The position numbers and the translations under genes are program-made. 56,006 bases of DNA from a virus (lineage: Duplodnaviria; Caudoviricetes), in the IMG/VR virus record IMGVR_UViG_3300038856_000078, positions 1-56,006 of that record. The stretch is one strand, 5' to 3'. The first letter of the stretch is position 1. The number at the start of each line of letters is the position of its first letter. Below the pieces are notes generated by a model. The model saw nothing but the letters and a program-made list of their open reading frames with translations. It made no database searches and had not been told where the DNA came from. Below, in pieces: positions 14,435 through 32,256 of this stretch.

Positions 14435-14807
14435 TCCATTGTACGATGTGCGTAGCTAACGTCATGTAGTCCTTGGTCTGTTGTTCGGTGGGGGGATTGT
14501 CTTCATAACTTCGAATACTTTCAAGGGTATCACAGCCGCTGCATGACCCATAGTCGACCTTTACGTACCAGTAGGTCGACGGCTGGTAGCCACCAGCGGC
14601 GATGACAAATAGTAGTGTGCCCTGATAGTCGCCGTCATCGATTACGTGGATTCGTTCTGGGTCAATAGAGCAATAGTCATCCTCATCCCTGATTACTGAG
14701 ACGACGTCCTTGACAATGGCTCTGTAGTCGTTGGGGTGCTCCTTGGAATACTTGTCGCGGAGGGTTTCCTTGTTGGCTTCCCACCTTTCGACGAACTCTT
14801 GGATCAT
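14418..14807 (-). CDS. Conserved hypothetical phage protein
   Basis: DDGDYQGTLLF and YGSCSGCD motifs. Confidence 0.7.
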   Translation of the reverse strand: MIQEFVERWEANKETLRDKYSKEHPNDYRAIVKDVVSVIRDEDDYCSIDPERIHVIDDGDYQGTLLFVIAAGGYQPSTYWYVKVDYGSCSGCDTLESIRSYEDNPPTEQQTKDYMTLATHIVQWIKEME

Positions 14808-15334
14808 GAGCGCCTCCTTCGAAGACCAAGAGCCCCCAGGCCCAGGCCCAGTAGAGCGAGGCTGCCGGGCTCGGGGGTGGGGATAGTGTCACCATTAGGG
14901 CGTACAATCAGGAACTCGTCAGTGCTTGCCCACGAGTCGCGACCACCCTTCGCGAAGAAGGTGCCAAGGACGGGTGACCTGTCGGTAAGGAAGCATACAG
15001 AGCTCTCGCAATCTTCGAATTCGAATTTGACGCCGAAGATATCGCCGCCACGAGTCTGAAACCACCTCGGACCCTCGAAGCTTTCTTGGCTTCGAATCGG
15101 AATGTCGCAGTCCTGTGTCACTTCGATAATCAAATGCGACAGCGCAGGGCGCTCCGCGCTTATCGAGTAACAGTACCGCCACAGCTCTCCCTCCTGCTGG
15201 ACGTTCCACGATATGGAAAAATTGTCCCATTCGTTGGTCGTAAGCTGGTTCGCTGAAAGGGAACCCGACAGGTCGATGAATGCTGCGTTCAGATTTACGG
15301 TGACGAAAAGGAGGGGAATTAGACATCGGGACAT
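14804..15334 (-). CDS. PEP-CTERM sorting domain protein (exosortase substrate)
   Basis: N-terminal signal peptide MSRCLIPLLFVTVNLNA; C-terminus TPEPGSLALLGLGLGALGLRRRRS (PEP, TM helix, Arg cluster). Confidence 0.92.
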   Translation of the reverse strand: MSRCLIPLLFVTVNLNAAFIDLSGSLSANQLTTNEWDNFSISWNVQQEGELWRYCYSISAERPALSHLIIEVTQDCDIPIRSQESFEGPRWFQTRGGDIFGVKFEFEDCESSVCFLTDRSPVLGTFFAKGGRDSWASTDEFLIVRPNGDTIPTPEPGSLALLGLGLGALGLRRRRS

Positions 15335-15666
15335 GTTAAACCTTCTTCTTCTGCAAGGGTTTCGAGTTCGGATTTCCATTTAGCAGGGGTGCTGGTGTGG
15401 TCGTCGTGAATATCTTGTAGTGTAGAGAGGAATACTTCGTTTCCCAACTTCTTCTTGATGTCTGGGTATTTCCAAAAAAGCATCTCTACCCCTCCTCGGA
15501 ACTTCTGTCCGGGGTGCCCGTCGGGAATCAAGCAGCCCACGGCACACTTTCGGCCTTCCGAATCGAGGTAACTACAGGCTCCGTATTTCTCGTCGTATGC
15601 TCTCTCCTTCTGAGTCAAGAGGTGCTTGTAGACGCGGTTAAAGATACGCTGTTTCGACATTCCCAT
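15319..15666 (-). CDS. Hypothetical protein, paralog of 27969..28325
   Basis: IF....HLL.Q, C.Y, CAVGCLI and LQDIHD motifs shared with the paralog. Confidence 0.75.
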   Translation of the reverse strand: MGMSKQRIFNRVYKHLLTQKERAYDEKYGACSYLDSEGRKCAVGCLIPDGHPGQKFRGGVEMLFWKYPDIKKKLGNEVFLSTLQDIHDDHTSTPAKWKSELETLAEEEGLTCPDV

Positions 15667-24560: not shown

Positions 24561-25022
24561 ATGGCTCCTAAGAAAATAGTTTACGCGGGTGAAATTAACA
24601 GCGCGCTGGTCGAGCGCGTGTGGAAAGGCAATTGGTCCGAGCTGATTCTGTGCTCGGACGGGGGGTGTACTTACTGCATGAGGGCTATTTGTGACTACCT
24701 CCTGGACAAGGAGAAGAAGGTTGTAGGGGTCGGGCAAATCATGTCGTCTGCGACGGCTATCCTTGCGTGCGGTACGCCTGCTCTGTGCTCGCCCAACTGT
24801 CGGTTCCTTGTTCATGCTTCTGACCTTTCGGAGGCGAGCGGCGGGATTCAAGAGATGCGGAACAATGCCGAGGAGTTGAAGGTTGAGGAGGCCTGGTACT
24901 TAGACGTCATGATGGCTCGGACGAAGTTGTCGCGTGAAGCGTGGGTTGACTTGATTCGTGAGGAGACTGTGTTTGGGGCGGCTATGGCGAAGTCGATTGG
25001 GTTGGTTGATTCAATTCTGTAG
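24561..25022 (+). CDS. ClpP-like serine protease (S14)
   Basis: GEI, CSDGG, G.IMSSATAILACG (Ser), FLVH (His), A.SIGLVDSI. Confidence 0.85.
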   Translation: MAPKKIVYAGEINSALVERVWKGNWSELILCSDGGCTYCMRAICDYLLDKEKKVVGVGQIMSSATAILACGTPALCSPNCRFLVHASDLSEASGGIQEMRNNAEELKVEEAWYLDVMMARTKLSREAWVDLIREETVFGAAMAKSIGLVDSIL

Positions 25023-25114: not shown

Positions 25115-25351
25115 TCACTTGGATGACCTATCATGCTTTCTCCAATTCCAAATCGTCAAAACGTTCAACACCCCGAGCACACACGACAGGCCCAGCAAGC
25201 TCCAATTCTCGAGGGCCACGGACTGATAGAGATAGGCGGCATTGCCCAAGAAGTTGGCCACGGCGTAGTGGATTGGTTTGCGGCGGGCCATGGACGCCGC
25301 GCCGTATATGAAGCAGAAATTTCCACACCATCCTACGGACTGGGCTATCAC
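25115..25351 (-). CDS. Small 3-TM membrane protein (PnuC/SemiSWEET-like topology)
   Basis: GW.GN..FI.G, ANFLGNAAYLY, third TM ending WNWRK. Confidence 0.55.
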   Translation of the reverse strand: MIAQSVGWCGNFCFIYGAASMARRKPIHYAVANFLGNAAYLYQSVALENWSLLGLSCVLGVLNVLTIWNWRKHDRSSK

Positions 25352-25792: not shown

Positions 25793-26083
25793 TCATTGAC
25801 ACTCCTCGTGGTAGTAGTACTCGTCTCGGAGCACTGGGTTCGGGCCCAGACGTTCGTGGCAAGCAGCGCAGGTCTTGTGCCGGTTGTCGGAGTGTGGTCG
25901 GACGAATTGAAGCTCCACGCTGCAATCCGGAGGCTCCCCCTTGTATAAATCCACGCACCCCGCCTTGAACATGCGAGCGCACAATCTCGCCCAGGCCTCG
26001 TCGCGTGTCTCGGCCTGGATTACATAGGGCTCGGCGTGCTCGTCGTCTGTCCAGCTTACACAAAAACAGTAGTCAGAAATCAT
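25793..26083 (-). CDS. Hypothetical Cys-rich protein
   Basis: CAAC...YHEEC; SD AGGAG. Confidence 0.5.
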   Translation of the reverse strand: MISDYCFCVSWTDDEHAEPYVIQAETRDEAWARLCARMFKAGCVDLYKGEPPDCSVELQFVRPHSDNRHKTCAACHERLGPNPVLRDEYYYHEECQ

Positions 26084-26609
26084 AACTAACTCCTACAAAT
26101 ATTGCGCCGTTTTCGTGGCCCGTATTTTTGGTTGCCTTCGGAAGGCCGAAGAATTGGCGGGTTGAGTCACCGAAGAAGGTCATGCCGTTAGAGTGGTGAA
26201 AATAGCGGTAATCAAGGGAGATGGCGAGTCGAGGGGTTGCGCGCAGAGAGACACCTGCTCCGAGCTCTGTCGTGAAGGTATACCGCACGTCCGAGCCACG
26301 CCAACCTTGGGCAGTGCCCACTCCAAAGACGCCTATCATGTAGGGTGAAATCTTGCTCGGGTATCGGATTTTTACTGCGGTCTCCACGCCGTAGATTTCT
26401 CCATTGCCGCGAATCGTGGTCGGGCCGGCTTCGAGCTGGACTGCTGGGTGCAGGTTGGCGCCGAGTCGGGTCGAAGTCTTGAGTGCATTTATCGTGTTGA
26501 GATGCGGGCGGAGCGTGCTTTGTAGTCCCAGTTTTGGGTGCAGAACGCCGACTTCGGTGACAGAGTAGCAGGAGGATAGCAGCAATGGCAAGAGTAGTAA
26601 GGATTTCAT
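26073..26609 (-). CDS. PagL-like outer-membrane beta-barrel (lipid A 3-O-deacylase family), predicted lipoprotein
   Basis: Lipobox LSSC; amphipathic strands; F..ELGAG, DYRYFHHSNG...NTGHE; terminal Phe. Confidence 0.75.
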   Translation of the reverse strand: MKSLLLLPLLLSSCYSVTEVGVLHPKLGLQSTLRPHLNTINALKTSTRLGANLHPAVQLEAGPTTIRGNGEIYGVETAVKIRYPSKISPYMIGVFGVGTAQGWRGSDVRYTFTTELGAGVSLRATPRLAISLDYRYFHHSNGMTFFGDSTRQFFGLPKATKNTGHENGAIFVGVSYDF

Positions 26610-27624
26610 TCAAGCAAAGACTCCAGGTTGTTAGAGGTTTGGATTTTGTGACTGGGGACGCCGAGTGACTGTGCCCACTCTCTTGTGTGCCGTATGGTGT
26701 TGGGGAGCGCGAGGGAGAGGTTGGCGGCGTAGAGGGTTGGTGGGATGAAGAGGGCTACGAGGTCTCCATTGGAGAACAAGGCACGGGTTTGGTTGGAGAA
26801 CTCGAGCTCATGTTTGTTGATGCCCAAGGGTGTGAGCTTCATCCCGTGTAGCCTCGGTCCTTCAGGTCTTGTCCCAGCTGATCCAAGCGTCCAGCGAGGT
26901 AGTGTTTCCCAGCATCGTCCATCATGTCAGCAAACAAGGATATCGCCTTCATATATCCTTGGTCCTTAATGTAGTTGAGAATATCTCGGCGCAGTGTTGA
27001 ATGGTCCATTAGTTCAGCTCCTTTGCGCAAGAGACCATGATTCGGGAGATTTGGAGGCGTTCCGAGGCGCGACGTTCGGCCTTCATGCGTGAGAGGGCCG
27101 TACGGGCGCTGTAGTGGGTGTAGAAGGCCCGCGCGAGGCGGGTGAGGGTGATAGTGCCCAGGAGGGCGAACGTGGCGTAGAGGCCAAGTATGAGGGTTGT
27201 GGAGATTTCTACCATGGTTTGTCGCTCCCAAGGTCGCGGACTCGGCGGATCGTATCGAGGTACTCTTCGAGTTCTGTGATGAGTGTTGACAATTCGGAAC
27301 CAGTGATTGAGGAAGGAGCCATGTCACACACATGCTGAGAGAGGAGCATGAGGTTGTCAAGGATTTTGTCGGTCATTTTTAGTCCTTTGGTTGAGGGTTG
27401 AAAAAGTGTACAGATTGTGGTATGATAGCGACGGTGCGGAATTTTCCGCCCACTTGGAGGCGAATATCTACAGAATCTACCTCGAGAATTTCGGGGATTT
27501 TTAGTTGACTGGTATATTTTATCGCGTCCGGCAGATTTGTAAAGTCTGGATTGCTTAGGGAAGCGTGCCCAGTTTTGCCGAATAGCCAGGACTGATAGTA
27601 GAGCCTATAAACCATGGAGGAATC

Positions 27625-27968: not shown

Positions 27969-28325
27969 TCATTTGTCCTCCAATCCGTACTCCGCGGCGA
28001 GCTTGGTGAATTGTGCGGGCCATTCTTCGGGCTCGTGGAGGTCGTGGACGGCCTGGAGAGTCTTGAGAAGGGAGCGGTTGTCTTCTCCCAAACGAGTTGC
28101 GATGTCGGGGAAGACTTCGAAGAGATTGGGGACGCCGGTGTCGTTGGATGCGTTCTTTTCCCAAGGGGAGACTTTTTCGAGCTCTTGGGGTGTCAGAAGT
28201 ACGCCGACAGCGCAGTTTGTGTTGTTGGGTCCGGCGTAGAGGCATGAGCCGTGGCAACTCATGGACCTTTTGCCCTGGGCGAGGAGTTTGCGCTTTGAGG
28301 TGCTGAAGATTTCTTGAGGATTCAT
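27969..28325 (-). CDS. Hypothetical protein, paralog of 15319..15666
   Basis: QEIF...LLAQG, CLY, CAVGVLL, LQAVHD. Confidence 0.75.
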   Translation of the reverse strand: MNPQEIFSTSKRKLLAQGKRSMSCHGSCLYAGPNNTNCAVGVLLTPQELEKVSPWEKNASNDTGVPNLFEVFPDIATRLGEDNRSLLKTLQAVHDLHEPEEWPAQFTKLAAEYGLEDK

Positions 28326-28750
28326 TGCTTTCTCACGATTCCGAGGGGGGTTTCTTCGTTTTCATGACGGAAAATGACGTCTCCGGGTTGAGGTTTGTAC
28401 GGAATTGCTCCTTTTTTGAGAAGTTCGAGTCTTCGCTCTTTTGGGTTGTTGTGCTGAAACGTGGTGATGATCTTGTCGCCCAGCTTCCAGACGGGGGCCT
28501 TGAGCTCCGGGCACGGGAGCCCGACGATAGTCAGCACTTTTCGTAGATCGTTCGGGATCTTGTTGCCCCTGCCTTTCTTGCTCGCCGTCTCAGGTTGTGA
28601 CCTCCTTCTGGACGTTAGCGCCCAGAATCCGTTCCCTCCGTCCGATATCTCTCGGTACGTCTCGAAGTAGTCGAGGAGGAACTTTTGTTCGTCTCTTGTT
28701 ACCTCGTAAATGGCGTCTTCACCGTGGTTGCTGAGCACTACGTAGAACAT
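28322..28750 (-). CDS. Hypothetical protein
   Basis: SD AGGAG upstream; coupled to the downstream gene. Confidence 0.65.
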   Translation of the reverse strand: MFYVVLSNHGEDAIYEVTRDEQKFLLDYFETYREISDGGNGFWALTSRRRSQPETASKKGRGNKIPNDLRKVLTIVGLPCPELKAPVWKLGDKIITTFQHNNPKERRLELLKKGAIPYKPQPGDVIFRHENEETPLGIVRKQ

Positions 28751-29337: not shown

Positions 29338-29370
29338 AAAAATGCCCGGCCAGAGTTATCCGACCGGGCG
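29338..29370 (-). terminator. Rho-independent terminator
   Basis: Minus strand GCCCGGTCGG-ataact-CTGGCCGGGC followed by ATTTTT, after the last small gene of the leftward cluster. Confidence 0.7.
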
Positions 29371-29380
29371 AGCCACCACT

Positions 29381-31677
29381 CAGTCGTTCAGTTCGAAGCC
29401 TGTGTATCCTACGTCCGGGTGAACGAACGCCACGTTCCCCGACCCGTCGTCTCGGAGCTCAAGTCCCGACGACTTAAGCACGTCGAGAATTTTCATTTTC
29501 GCCTCGATACACGTGTCGTTGATCTTGTCGAATTCGGCCTTAGTCATGCGTTTCTCCGATTCGTCTCATGTAACAGTCCACAAGCCGCCCGACCAGAAAC
29601 ACTGGCCTGGCGACTACGAATGCGATAGCGAGTGATTCAGCAATCATGTTCGACGTTACTCGGTTCTACACGAAGTCCGTAATAGGTTGCGTCGTGACGC
29701 TCAAACGACCCTTCTGGATAGATTGTTGGGTCTACGAATATAGCGTAAGTACCGTCTTGGTCCGCCTGACAAGCCTTGTGACAAGGGGATCCTGCTGGAA
29801 CAATGTATCCTCGGCTTTTGAATTCTTTGATTGTTCTCATATGTTCATTTCCCTATAGCCAGCAGTACGAGCCCCAGAGGCAGCTTCATAAGCTCCGCGA
29901 ATCCCTGCAGCTCACGATATAGCCCTCTGAAGCCCCTTAACTTCGCTTCTACGGGCCTCGAGTCCCATGACGTGAGGTACGTGTCCCGACACCTCCAAAG
30001 AGCGCCACGAAGCAAGATAACGTGTCCAGGGTCTATCACTGTTCTTTCCATTTTCTCGCCTTCTGTTTCTTGCGGTTTAGTCTCTTAATTCGCTTCCTAC
30101 GCTTCCGCTTCTTCTCCTCTTTCCTGTCGGCCTCTTTGTCATGGGGGAGTAACCACGGCGGTTTCATTCGTCTTCTCCTCACTCCTACATTAGCGGGGAA
30201 ATGGCGAACAAACGATTCAAGGGTCTGTCAAACTCAGCCAGCACTTCGGCCAGAGTCTCTCCGGGCTTCGCCCACGTGCGGCCAAGTTCGAGCAAGGTGT
30301 CGTCGTCCCATGCGTGGTCGTCAGTGTAGACAATCAAAGCTTCCCATATGTCGAAAACCTTGTCGCTTTTCAGGATAGGCTTACCTTTGATCTTGCGTCG
30401 TTTCATTTCGTCTTCTCCTTCTCAATCCAGGGCAACACAAACCAGAACACCACACCCACGGGCCCAGTCAACACGGCAACCAGCAGGAAGTATGTCAGGG
30501 TTTTGTTCACGAGTAGTATTCCTCCAAAATCCGCCTCGCTTCCCTCTCGCATGCCGCCGCGATTTTCCCGGCCGTATCCGTGTTCAGTCCCTGCTGATCA
30601 AACCAGTCGAAGTTCATATGCCAGAATCCGCCGACCTTGTCCGGGTGCCCGTCGTCGAGCATATGTTCGATTGCGCGCTTGTCTTGTGGGTACATGGGCT
30701 ATCTCTCTCCTCTCGCGACCTTCGGATAAAGGTCCACACGTTGCCAGTCTTGCTCTCGGTTGATTTCCATGCTGGTCACAACCCACTCCGACGGCCAGCG
30801 GCCGACAACGTCACCGATATCGAGTTCAGGACCTTCCGACCTCTGGCCTGTGCCGACGTTTGGGTGATAGGTATAGATTCGTGTCATACTCCCTCCCTCG
30901 CGTCCTTAATCGCCTCGTCCTCAGTCTCAAACGGCCCTACAGGCTCACCGTCGGGCAAACAGCCAGGGAAGCATGGCCACCAATACCAGCCCTCGTCAAG
31001 TCTGTCCCCGTCGCATTCGGCGTATGCATTGTGGTCCACGCTATGAAAAACCTCAGCGTCCGGCAGCGCGTGCTCGTCCGTCTCACGGCTCGGGTCGGTG
31101 TAGAATTGGGACATGTTAGTCCTCCTCTGGTCTCAGGCCAAGGTCTTTCAATCCGGACAACACGGTCGCGACGCAGTGGTTCATTTCCGCATGCTCAAGA
31201 CGCCCGTCATTCTGGGACTTGTCCCACGAAAGGCAATCCTCGCAGTAGAAACGATCTCCGGACTGCTCGCCACAAAGTCTGCACTCGTTCATTCTTCCTC
31301 CATCGCGCCCAGTCCCACAAGGACTGCGGCGATCATGGCTTCGTCGTACAGCCCGCTGAACTGTTCGTCCAGCCGGTCCCAGTATTCGTGAATCAGGGTG
31401 TCGTCAGTCATTCCGGGTTCTCCGAGCTTGCGAGGAGAGGCCGGAGGGCCGCTCCATGCTGGTTAATGGTTAGGCGACCTGAGACCAGCGCCCGCGAGCA
31501 CGACGGAACCGCAGGGGATTCTCCGCCTCGTTCAGCGGGTGGACGCGGTACTCGTCCTGGTCCCAGCTCGAGTAGAAAAGCTCGCGCCAGATCGCTTTGA
31601 CGTCGGCGAGTGAGTGCGCGAAGAAGAACGAGGTGATACGGCCGGTTGCGGTGTGGACTGCGACGATCTCGATCATG
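29381..31677 (-). other. Cluster of about 12 small early-type ORFs (e.g. 29637-29840, 29845-30051, 30185-30406, 30507-30695, 30699-30887, 30884-31114)
   Basis: Short ORFs with SD sequences, many with overlapping stop/start, between a promoter and a terminator. Confidence 0.65.
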
Positions 31678-31715
31678 GTGAGGCTCCTGTGGGTTGCGTC
31701 GTTCGAGGACACTGA

Positions 31716-31744
31716 ACCATACAACGAGGCCAGCGGTCTGTCAA
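31716..31744 (-). promoter_or_regulatory. Sigma70-type early promoter
   Basis: TTGACA-17nt-TATGGT with extended TG. Confidence 0.7.
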
Positions 31745-31777
31745 GGCGAATCTGGGGATTTGGTGGTGTGCCCTGGG

Positions 31778-31827
31778 GCAAGAGTCGTGCCGTGCGGAGC
31801 TCGAGGCTTGTAGCAAGAGTCGTGCCG
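31778..31827 (-). promoter_or_regulatory. Two identical 15 bp sigma54-like elements
   Basis: CGGCACGACTCTTGC at 31778-31792 and 31813-31827; fits GGCACG-N4-TTGC. Confidence 0.6.
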
Positions 31828-31941
31828 AACACCCCCTGGTCGAAACGCGATGGGGACAAAGCGTTTTGTGAGGAGCGCGGGTCGCCGCACGCGCATTTCA
31901 AAATATTTTTCCAAAAAATGATACACAACGCACACCTTTTG

Positions 31942-31950
31942 TGCTATAAT
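31942..31950 (+). promoter_or_regulatory. Extended -10 promoter for the rightward operon
   Basis: TGCTATAAT upstream of SD AAGGAG and ATG 31993. Confidence 0.55.
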
Positions 31951-31992
31951 ACCAAAATTGTACACCGTAAACCTCTAACCCAAGGAGCCTCA

Positions 31993-32256
31993 ATGAACAT
32001 TCCCGACGAACTCTTCGAGACAAACGAAAATGTTGATATTCACTACACCGGCACCCCAGTAAGAGGAGAAAGCGCTTGGGTAGTCAAAACGTCCTGTATA
32101 TCAGGGGTGGGCCACTCATTTGAGAAAGCGTATGAAAGGAATAAAGAAAATGTGAGGAGGGAAGAATTGAAAAACAAGTTTAATGAGTTTTTAATGAATT
32201 ATCCTTCTAAAGACAATCTTGAAGCCCTCAACACCTTCCTTGAGACAAATCAGTAA
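31993..32256 (+). CDS. Hypothetical protein
   Basis: MNIPDELF start after AAGGAG. Confidence 0.6.
   Translation: MNIPDELFETNENVDIHYTGTPVRGESAWVVKTSCISGVGHSFEKAYERNKENVRREELKNKFNEFLMNYPSKDNLEALNTFLETNQ

Follow-up and report, generated by a model that had tools for sequence, protein, structure and literature searches.

The lipid A 3-O-deacylase PagL of Pseudomonas aeruginosa (PDB 2ERV; Pfam PF09411) and the PagL of Salmonella are the described enzymes against which we compare a phage gene in this work. To our knowledge, the characterised PagLs are not lipoproteins and carry an ordinary signal peptide. Phages also encode outer-membrane barrels of the lambda Lom and Ail-OmpX type, which are non-catalytic. 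We know of no HxSN...NxGxE motif in Lom or Ail. Likewise, the phage alterations of LPS known to us concern the O-antigen.

According to a review (PMC4402001), PagL is an eight-stranded barrel; its triad is Ser-His-Glu, and a conserved Asn belongs to its oxyanion hole. His163 and Ser165 are reported as essential in Salmonella PagL, whose activity is reported to drive vesiculation (PMC4958258). The same paper describes laboratory E. coli K-12 as lacking pagL and gives m/z 1,570 for the 3-O-deacylated form of Salmonella lipid A. In P. aeruginosa, the acylation state of lipid A is described as affecting the entry of an RNA phage (PMC10783630). LpxR, a lipid A 3'-O-deacylase (PDB 3FID), resembles the role proposed here, as an outer-membrane enzyme that removes lipid A acyl chains. 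However, it is described as 12-stranded, and its Ca2+-dependent site as built from Asn, Asp, Thr/Ser, Gln, His and Glu (PMC6863877), unlike the protein of this phage. Its sequence is unrelated to our query, and it gave no match in our searches. A literature search, as far as the retrieved portions of the papers go, found none on a phage-encoded PagL or other lipid A deacylase.

The barrel gene and its phage genome

The window is the whole IMG/VR virus record IMGVR_UViG_3300038856_000078, of 56,006 nucleotides, with an estimated completeness of 92%. The phage origin given by the first-pass annotation agrees with its gene content. PHROG matches were two helicases, ribonucleotide reductase, DNA polymerase, methyltransferase, primase-helicase, endonuclease VII, large terminase and portal. 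Pfam added an SU10-type adaptor, depolymerase-type domains, a ClpP-like protein and a PEP-CTERM protein. The window has no tRNA genes. The barrel gene runs in the direction opposite to that of the replication and structural genes, and its neighbours are small accessory ORFs. The features used below are the following.

26073..26609, minus strand: PagL-like outer-membrane barrel precursor, 178 aa (ORF list; stop codon 26073-26075)
26568..26609, minus strand: signal peptide and lipobox L-S-S-C, residues 1-14, with Cys14 at 26568-26570 (sequence)
26184..26198, minus strand: H138-H139-S140-N141-G142, putative catalytic His/Ser and Asn, at the extracellular end of strand 7 (alignment with PagL)
26127..26183, minus strand: extracellular loop 4, enlarged (residues 143-161), containing Arg151 and a short helix predicted at 148-153 (model and alignment)
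26112..26126, minus strand: N162-T163-G164-H165-E166, Asn/Gly/acid motif at the start of strand 8 (alignment with PagL)
26076..26102, minus strand: last strand, with the OMP-type C-terminal signature I-F-V-G-V-S-Y-D-F ending in Phe178 (sequence; strand 165-177 in the model)
26606..26842, minus strand: upstream ORF, 78 aa, phage family with function unassigned (phrog_5643, E 5.6e-6)
25793..26083, minus strand: downstream Cys-rich ORF, 96 aa (ORF list; coding-type GC3 0.70)

The protein begins with MKSLLLLPLLLSSC, in which a short charged n-region (MK) is followed by the Leu-rich h-region SLLLLPLLL and by Cys14 in LSSC (L11-S12-S13-C14). It ends in ...VGVSYDF, with Phe178 as the terminal residue. 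The lipobox, the C-terminal Phe and the motifs HHSNG (138-142) and NTGHE (162-166), all named by the first-pass annotation, are thus read directly in the sequence.

The ATG of the barrel gene overlaps the stop of the upstream ORF (ATGA), and the two genes are translationally coupled. The 3' end shares 11 nt with the downstream ORF, which had no Pfam or PHROG match. Because it overlaps both neighbours, the barrel gene belongs to a dense run of small minus-strand ORFs, which spans, as judged by codon-position GC, from about 31292 down to 25115.

Promoter-like sites numbered nine against 5.6 ± 2.4 expected, so the scan is not above background and the sites are too few for calling timing. In this same scan, a possible transcription unit is bounded by a sigma-70-like site (28853-28825) and by a strong hairpin (29369-29344), at a level not above background. 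PADLOC gave no match for the barrel gene and its nine neighbours.

A near-identical phage fragment (L002) was found on a contig of another metagenome. It carries the 78-aa ORF of phrog_5643 5' of its barrel gene, and one additional small gene is inserted upstream. The two copies of the barrel gene are 96% identical (30 of 537 bases differ), with 19 synonymous and 8 non-synonymous codons. The pN/pS value is about 0.11. It means that the barrel ORF is a real gene under purifying selection.

Relation to PagL and predicted fold

The first-pass annotation called the protein a PagL-like lipid A deacylase and named the PF09411 HMM as a check. The query scores 20.0 bits with this model (E 7.6e-4), under the gathering cut-off of 23 bits. 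The match covers residues 108-142 alone, because the loop insertion breaks it. A six-frame search of the window with PF09411 gave 19.7 bits. The score with PF13505 (OMP_b-brl), 20 bits, is equal to that of PagL and is also below its gathering cut-off (28.7 bits). For the query, PHROGs returned nothing better than E 0.13, and NCBIfam nothing specific.

An exhaustive search of 1.84 billion representative proteins returned only 28 at E<=0.001, so the family is small; word-index searches added few proteins. Eight of the 28 pass the PagL cut-off of 23 bits (24.5 to 39.7 bits; best E 6.5e-10), and two pass that of OMP_b-brl (P0007 with 39.8 bits and P0024 with 30.7). Among the 29 aligned members, 16 match PagL at E<=0.01. 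With hhalign, the clade of the query (A4, 11 sequences) aligned with the clade of Pfam-passing members (A5, five sequences) over 179 columns, with a probability of 99.6% and an E value of 4.6e-24.

A profile of eight short-loop relatives was compared with the PDB sequences. Its best match was P. aeruginosa PagL (2erv_A, E 0.009), in an alignment that matches HxSN and PNxGx(E/N). The profile of the whole 29-sequence family did not reach 2ERV in the PDB sequences. In the numbering of that alignment and of the review PMC4402001, as far as the latter gives it, the PagL site reads H126-Y-S128-N129-A-G-L-K-Q-P-N136-D-G138-I-E140. Through the profiles of the relatives, H138, S140, N141, N162, G164 and E166 of the query fall on H126, S128, N129, N136, G138 and E140. 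His138, Ser140 and Glu166 would then match the PagL triad His126-Ser128-Glu140, and Asn141 and Asn162 would occupy the places of Asn129 and Asn136.

By these alignments, the protein is a remote homologue of PagL, with its His, Ser, Asn and Glu placed on the active site of that enzyme. In this comparison, the query is like PagL in being an eight-stranded outer-membrane barrel, with HxSN where strand 7 ends and NxGxE where strand 8 begins, residue for residue. The P-aromatic and YR motifs are also common to both. On the other hand, it differs from 2ERV in the 14 extra residues of loop 4 with an invariant Arg, in the lipobox, in being phage-encoded and in its score below the Pfam cut-off. So the PagL-like identity holds as remote homology with an aligned site, but the query itself stays under the Pfam threshold with an equal OMP_b-brl score. 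Membership is remote yet coherent, and the case rests on sequence, not on fold.

Five short-loop bacterial relatives from metagenomes (P0023, P0030, P0031, P0032 and P0033) are uncharacterised members of PF09411. They are full-length homologues of the query and share its lipobox Cys, the HxSNG motif and PNxGY. In contrast, their loop has 11 residues instead of 21, their acid position is Asn instead of Glu, and their identity to the query is about 27-35%. As judged from P0030 and P0031, which lie on long contigs, predicted lipidated barrels of the PagL family exist in bacteria.

The AlphaFold2 model, made with the 29-sequence alignment, has a mean pLDDT of 93.5 and a pTM of 0.86. It shows eight strands (14-24, 42-54, 57-67, 71-82, 87-101, 110-123, 128-140 and 165-177), in line with the barrel pattern noticed at first reading. 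Strand 1 starts at the lipobox Cys. A short helix (148-153) lies within the long last loop, in a region with pLDDT of 87-92.

The comparison of this model with known structures gave different orders. In Foldseek, OmpA and NspA rank at the top and PagL 2erv is 26th. VIA-align over the Foldseek list puts PagL 2erv_B first (Z 15.4, rmsd 2.0 A over 132 residues), with porin III (14.9), NspA (14.8) and OprF (14.7) behind. A wide VIA-align run, independent of Foldseek, places 2erv_B eighth (Z 12.6, rmsd 2.8 A, 124 residues); ahead of it are 9nh2 (14.9), NspA (14.8) and OprF (14.7). We used as a control a model of P0023 (pLDDT 77.8), a relative that passes the Pfam PagL cut-off. It gave Z 16.3 with 2erv, 16.6 with porin III and 16.5 with NspA. 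As this Pfam-passing protein ties likewise, the fold ranking is uninformative for PagL versus OmpA/NspA, either way. The Foldseek check proposed at first reading, with OmpA best and 2erv on top in one of two VIA-align runs, neither refutes nor confirms PagL. With rankings in conflict between runs and the control tied, fold ranking was dropped as a family discriminator. The ESM Atlas returned generic barrel clusters alone. The predicted structure shows a small outer-membrane barrel, nothing more specific.

These results bear on whether the protein is an enzyme. It could be a non-catalytic phage 'moron' barrel of the Lom, Ail or Opa type, acting by its presence, for example as a receptor mask, as an adhesin or as the outer-membrane anchor of another phage protein, with the His/Ser motif as a relic. 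Lom, the Ail-OmpX type and the phage barrels of BFVD are like the query in size, eight-stranded fold and phage carriage. BFVD gave 18 matches at E<=0.001, all phage-encoded eight-stranded barrels and none named PagL. By these matches, small outer-membrane barrels are common in uncultured phages. One relative, P0010, is named 'opacity protein-like surface antigen' by one JGI source. The Foldseek order and the equal OMP_b-brl and PagL scores can also be read in this way. However, the tie of the P0023 control with NspA and porin III takes the weight from an OmpA-like ranking, and the conservation of the site, given below, leaves this explanation doubtful.

The model also allows the orientation of the site to be considered. 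From the sequence and the strand limits, the even-numbered residues form the hydrophobic, lipid-facing set of strand 7 (L128, I130, L132, Y134, Y136, H138, S140) and of strand 8 (E166, G168, I170, V172, V174, Y176, F178). We infer that H138, S140 and E166 would be on the same outer face, at the same extracellular rim and on adjoining strands, which is the PagL arrangement.

Conservation of the active site, loop 4 and the lipid anchor

The alignment of 29 sequences has a mean column identity of 23%, and G119 is its sole invariant position. Besides this residue, only P89, Y90, H138, S140, G142 and N162 are conserved in at least 90% of the sequences. The counts at the putative site, over the 28 sequences that cover it, are the following.

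His138: 28/28
Ser140: 27/28 (one Thr)
Asn141: 21/28 (six Trp, one Ile)
Asn162: 27/28
Gly164: 26/28
Position 166: Glu 13, Gln 8, Asn 6, Asp 1

The selected core of these sequences is the His-Ser pair plus Asn. The acid is optional across the family and present in the query. An apparently complete His-Ser-Glu triad had been noted for this protein. By alignment, all three residues are there in the query, but the acid position is Glu in just 13 of 28 relatives, so a complete triad is no family rule.

The acid gives the non-catalytic explanation one more argument, since 14 of the 28 sequences have Q or N at this position. Nevertheless, His138, Ser140 and Asn162 belong to the best-conserved part of the protein, which would not be the case for a relic motif. 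Moreover, the codons of S140, N162 and E166 differ solely by synonymous changes between the barrel gene and its close variant. We consider, with somewhat better than even chances, that the gene encodes an outer-membrane serine esterase of the PagL lineage, divergent and carried by a phage. The protein is probably an active PagL-type lipid A deacylase.

Loop 4 differs from that of the known enzyme. The spacing from Ser140 to Asn162 is 21 residues in the query against seven from Ser128 to Asn136 in 2ERV. This makes 14 extra residues, close to the 15 or so estimated at first. Twenty members have a spacing of 21 (up to 23) residues, and eight have 11-12. Every one of the 20 long-loop members has Arg151. 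Asp148 occurs in 15 of the 20 and is replaced by Asn in the 96% variant. In a maximum-likelihood tree, made without the fragments P0025 and P0026, a branch of modest support (69/77) separates the long-loop members from the others. This enlarged loop, with its invariant Arg151, may add contacts to the lipid A head group or gate the site.

The same loop opens a different reading of the enzyme. The protein could be an active serine esterase of the PagL lineage whose substrate is not the 3-O-acyl chain of lipid A, with loop 4 setting the specificity. Another ester position of lipid A, an outer-leaflet phospholipid, a lipoprotein or a host-specific glycolipid could take this place. A loop three times the PagL length beside the active site, with its own invariant Arg151, is consistent with this. 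Six of the 28 relatives have Trp replacing the Asn after Ser (HxSWG), which suggests an altered pocket within the family, and the query itself misses the Pfam PagL cut-off. In addition, the envelope lipids and the lipid A chemistry of the host may differ. However, the catalytic strand positions are unchanged, and lipid A 3-O-deacylation is the sole characterised activity in the homology group, as far as PMC4402001 and PMC4958258 describe it. We regard a different substrate as rather unlikely.

Lipoboxes follow the consensus [LVI][ASTVI][GAS]C and are preceded by an n-region with positive charge and by a hydrophobic h-region. The query fits this pattern, with MK, the hydrophobic h-region and Cys14, and is a predicted substrate of signal peptidase II. 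Of the 25 relatives with a covered N-terminus, 24 keep the Cys column, and position -1 is G, A or S in every case. These include the short-loop relatives on long contigs, P0031 (859 kb) and P0030 (100 kb). So the predicted anchor is a trait of the branch and not of the phage copy alone. The anchor and the loop had been called atypical for PagL. The lipobox and the enlarged loop are real, and both are conserved in the relatives. At the other end, the terminal residue of the 27 relatives that reach the C-terminus is F in 23, L in three and W in one.

Possible role in infection and carriers of relatives

The route of the protein can be proposed from these signals. It would be exported by Sec, lipidated at Cys14 and cleaved by signal peptidase II. 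Lol would then carry it to the outer membrane, where BAM would insert it through the C-terminal Y-x-F strand. The N-terminal acyl anchor would sit in the inner leaflet, directly before strand 1 of the eight-stranded barrel. On the other side, His138 and Ser140, among the last residues of strand 7, and Glu166, among the first of strand 8, would face the lipid at the extracellular rim.

The lipobox and the barrel, together with the PEP-CTERM protein encoded in another part of the genome, point to a diderm host. The nearest cultured phages are distant. The DNA polymerase is 45% identical to those of Pseudomonas phages (e.g. Ab18, PaMx11) and the portal 27%, so they are too distant to name a host.

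Lipid A acylation affects phage entry and PagL drives vesiculation, as cited above; a phage PagL is therefore plausible for superinfection exclusion, decoy control or outer-membrane weakening. For this phage, the benefit might be a surface change that excludes later phages, progeny kept off debris and vesicles, or an outer membrane that is loosened or vesiculated. We propose, tentatively and short of an even chance, that phages of an uncultured Gram-negative host carry a lipid-anchored PagL-type enzyme with a phage-lineage loop insertion, and that, in the course of infection, this enzyme takes an acyl chain off the lipid A of the host.

The weakening of the outer membrane could also be a lysis step, in which a lipid-anchored deacylase acts late and replaces a spanin or a disruptin. 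No integrase, endolysin, holin or spanin was recognised in the window by PHROG and Pfam scans of 44, 46 and 36 ORFs, and the last three of these absences suit such a step. The minus-strand cluster of the gene also includes two small ORFs that encode hydrophobic segments (27009-27215, 68 aa, and 25115-25351, 78 aa), and PagL expression is reported to raise vesiculation in Salmonella (PMC4958258). However, no endolysin adjoins the barrel gene, its small-ORF neighbours are typical of early or accessory clusters, and its strand is opposite to that of the structural genes. The record is 92% complete, and a lysis cassette may sit in the missing part. A lysis function is thus very improbable, and a deacylase that edits the envelope is the reading kept here.

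What is new is the form, a predicted lipid-anchored, long-loop and phage-borne version of a known kind of enzyme. If the proposal is true, the phage would have an effector that edits the membrane anchor of LPS, lipid A itself, and not the O-antigen. For lipid A engineering, this lipid-anchored form with its long loop would also offer a new and compact scaffold.

Relatives of the gene were found on few carriers. A tblastn search with the query and P0023 gave no match in 50,697 deposited phage genomes, and pattern scans of IMG/VR and of the species-genome collection gave no relative. Vibrio phage nt-1 has no PF09411 match. The other long-loop members are mostly on contigs of 0.8-12 kb, with P0013 on 63 kb and P0006 on 152 kb. 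Finally, the metagenome scan returned two loci, the close variant (L002) and L003. The latter encodes a 41% relative with a lipobox, flanked by an ORF of phrog_9961 and by a methyltransferase; this methyltransferase and that of the window both match phrog_359.

Sequence variants and gene context of the PagL-like protein

The HxSNG motif, with its putative catalytic His and Ser, is not uniform among the 28 protein relatives of the PagL-like gene product. In six of them (P0013, P0014, P0016, P0018, P0021 and one further) it reads HxSWG, with tryptophan instead of asparagine following the serine. P0017 has Thr-Ile where most members have Ser-Asn. These seven proteins may be sub-lineages with an altered pocket or without activity.

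The neighborhood of the gene varies too. L002 is a metagenome contig from a phage carrying a 96%-identical variant. It has an insertion that separates the PagL-like gene from the ORF upstream of it:

L002 195-533, plus strand: extra gene of 112 aa, matching phrog_18067 (E 2.8e-20)

The accessory cluster is therefore mosaic. Among the ORFs that share the minus-strand cluster with the PagL-like gene are two small ones:

27009-27215, minus strand: ORF of 68 aa, hydrophobic membrane-like segments in its sequence
25115-25351, minus strand: ORF of 78 aa, likewise with hydrophobic membrane-like segments

Pfam, PHROG and PADLOC searches gave no family match for either. Their products might be holin-like, or membrane effectors of another kind.

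Probable coding strand and candidate transcription signals

Both strands present ORFs further along the window.

30348-32256, plus strand: three long ORFs (232, 246 and 219 aa), weak coding-type GC3
29845-31292, minus strand: chain of eight short ORFs, coding signature present

The three long ORFs had no matches in the Pfam search. The real genes of this region are probably the minus-strand ORFs rather than those of the plus strand. Two candidate signals lie in the minus-strand string of small ORFs:

29344-29369, minus strand: strong hairpin resembling a terminator, with 11 pairs (8 G-C) and a T-run after it
28853-28825, minus strand: promoter-like site, a short way upstream of the ORF 28322-28750

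It is possible that the hairpin divides this string into two transcription units.

A candidate surface protein, a candidate lipoprotein and a ClpP-like domain

Three features lie elsewhere in the window.

14804-15379, minus strand: PEP-CTERM ORF of 191 aa, C-terminal sorting motif PF07589
5052-5309, plus strand: second candidate lipoprotein, 85 aa (MKTYFLICILMCLVGC...), within the replication module
24561-25022, plus strand: ClpP-like protease domain (Pfam PF00574, E 3.1e-12)

The sorting motif scored 27.2 bits in the Pfam search (cut-off 20.7), and it hints at a host with an exosortase system. It is unusual for a phage to encode a surface protein that depends on an exosortase. The candidate lipoprotein had no match in the PHROG search. 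The ClpP-like domain adjoins the primase-helicase and is distant from the head genes.
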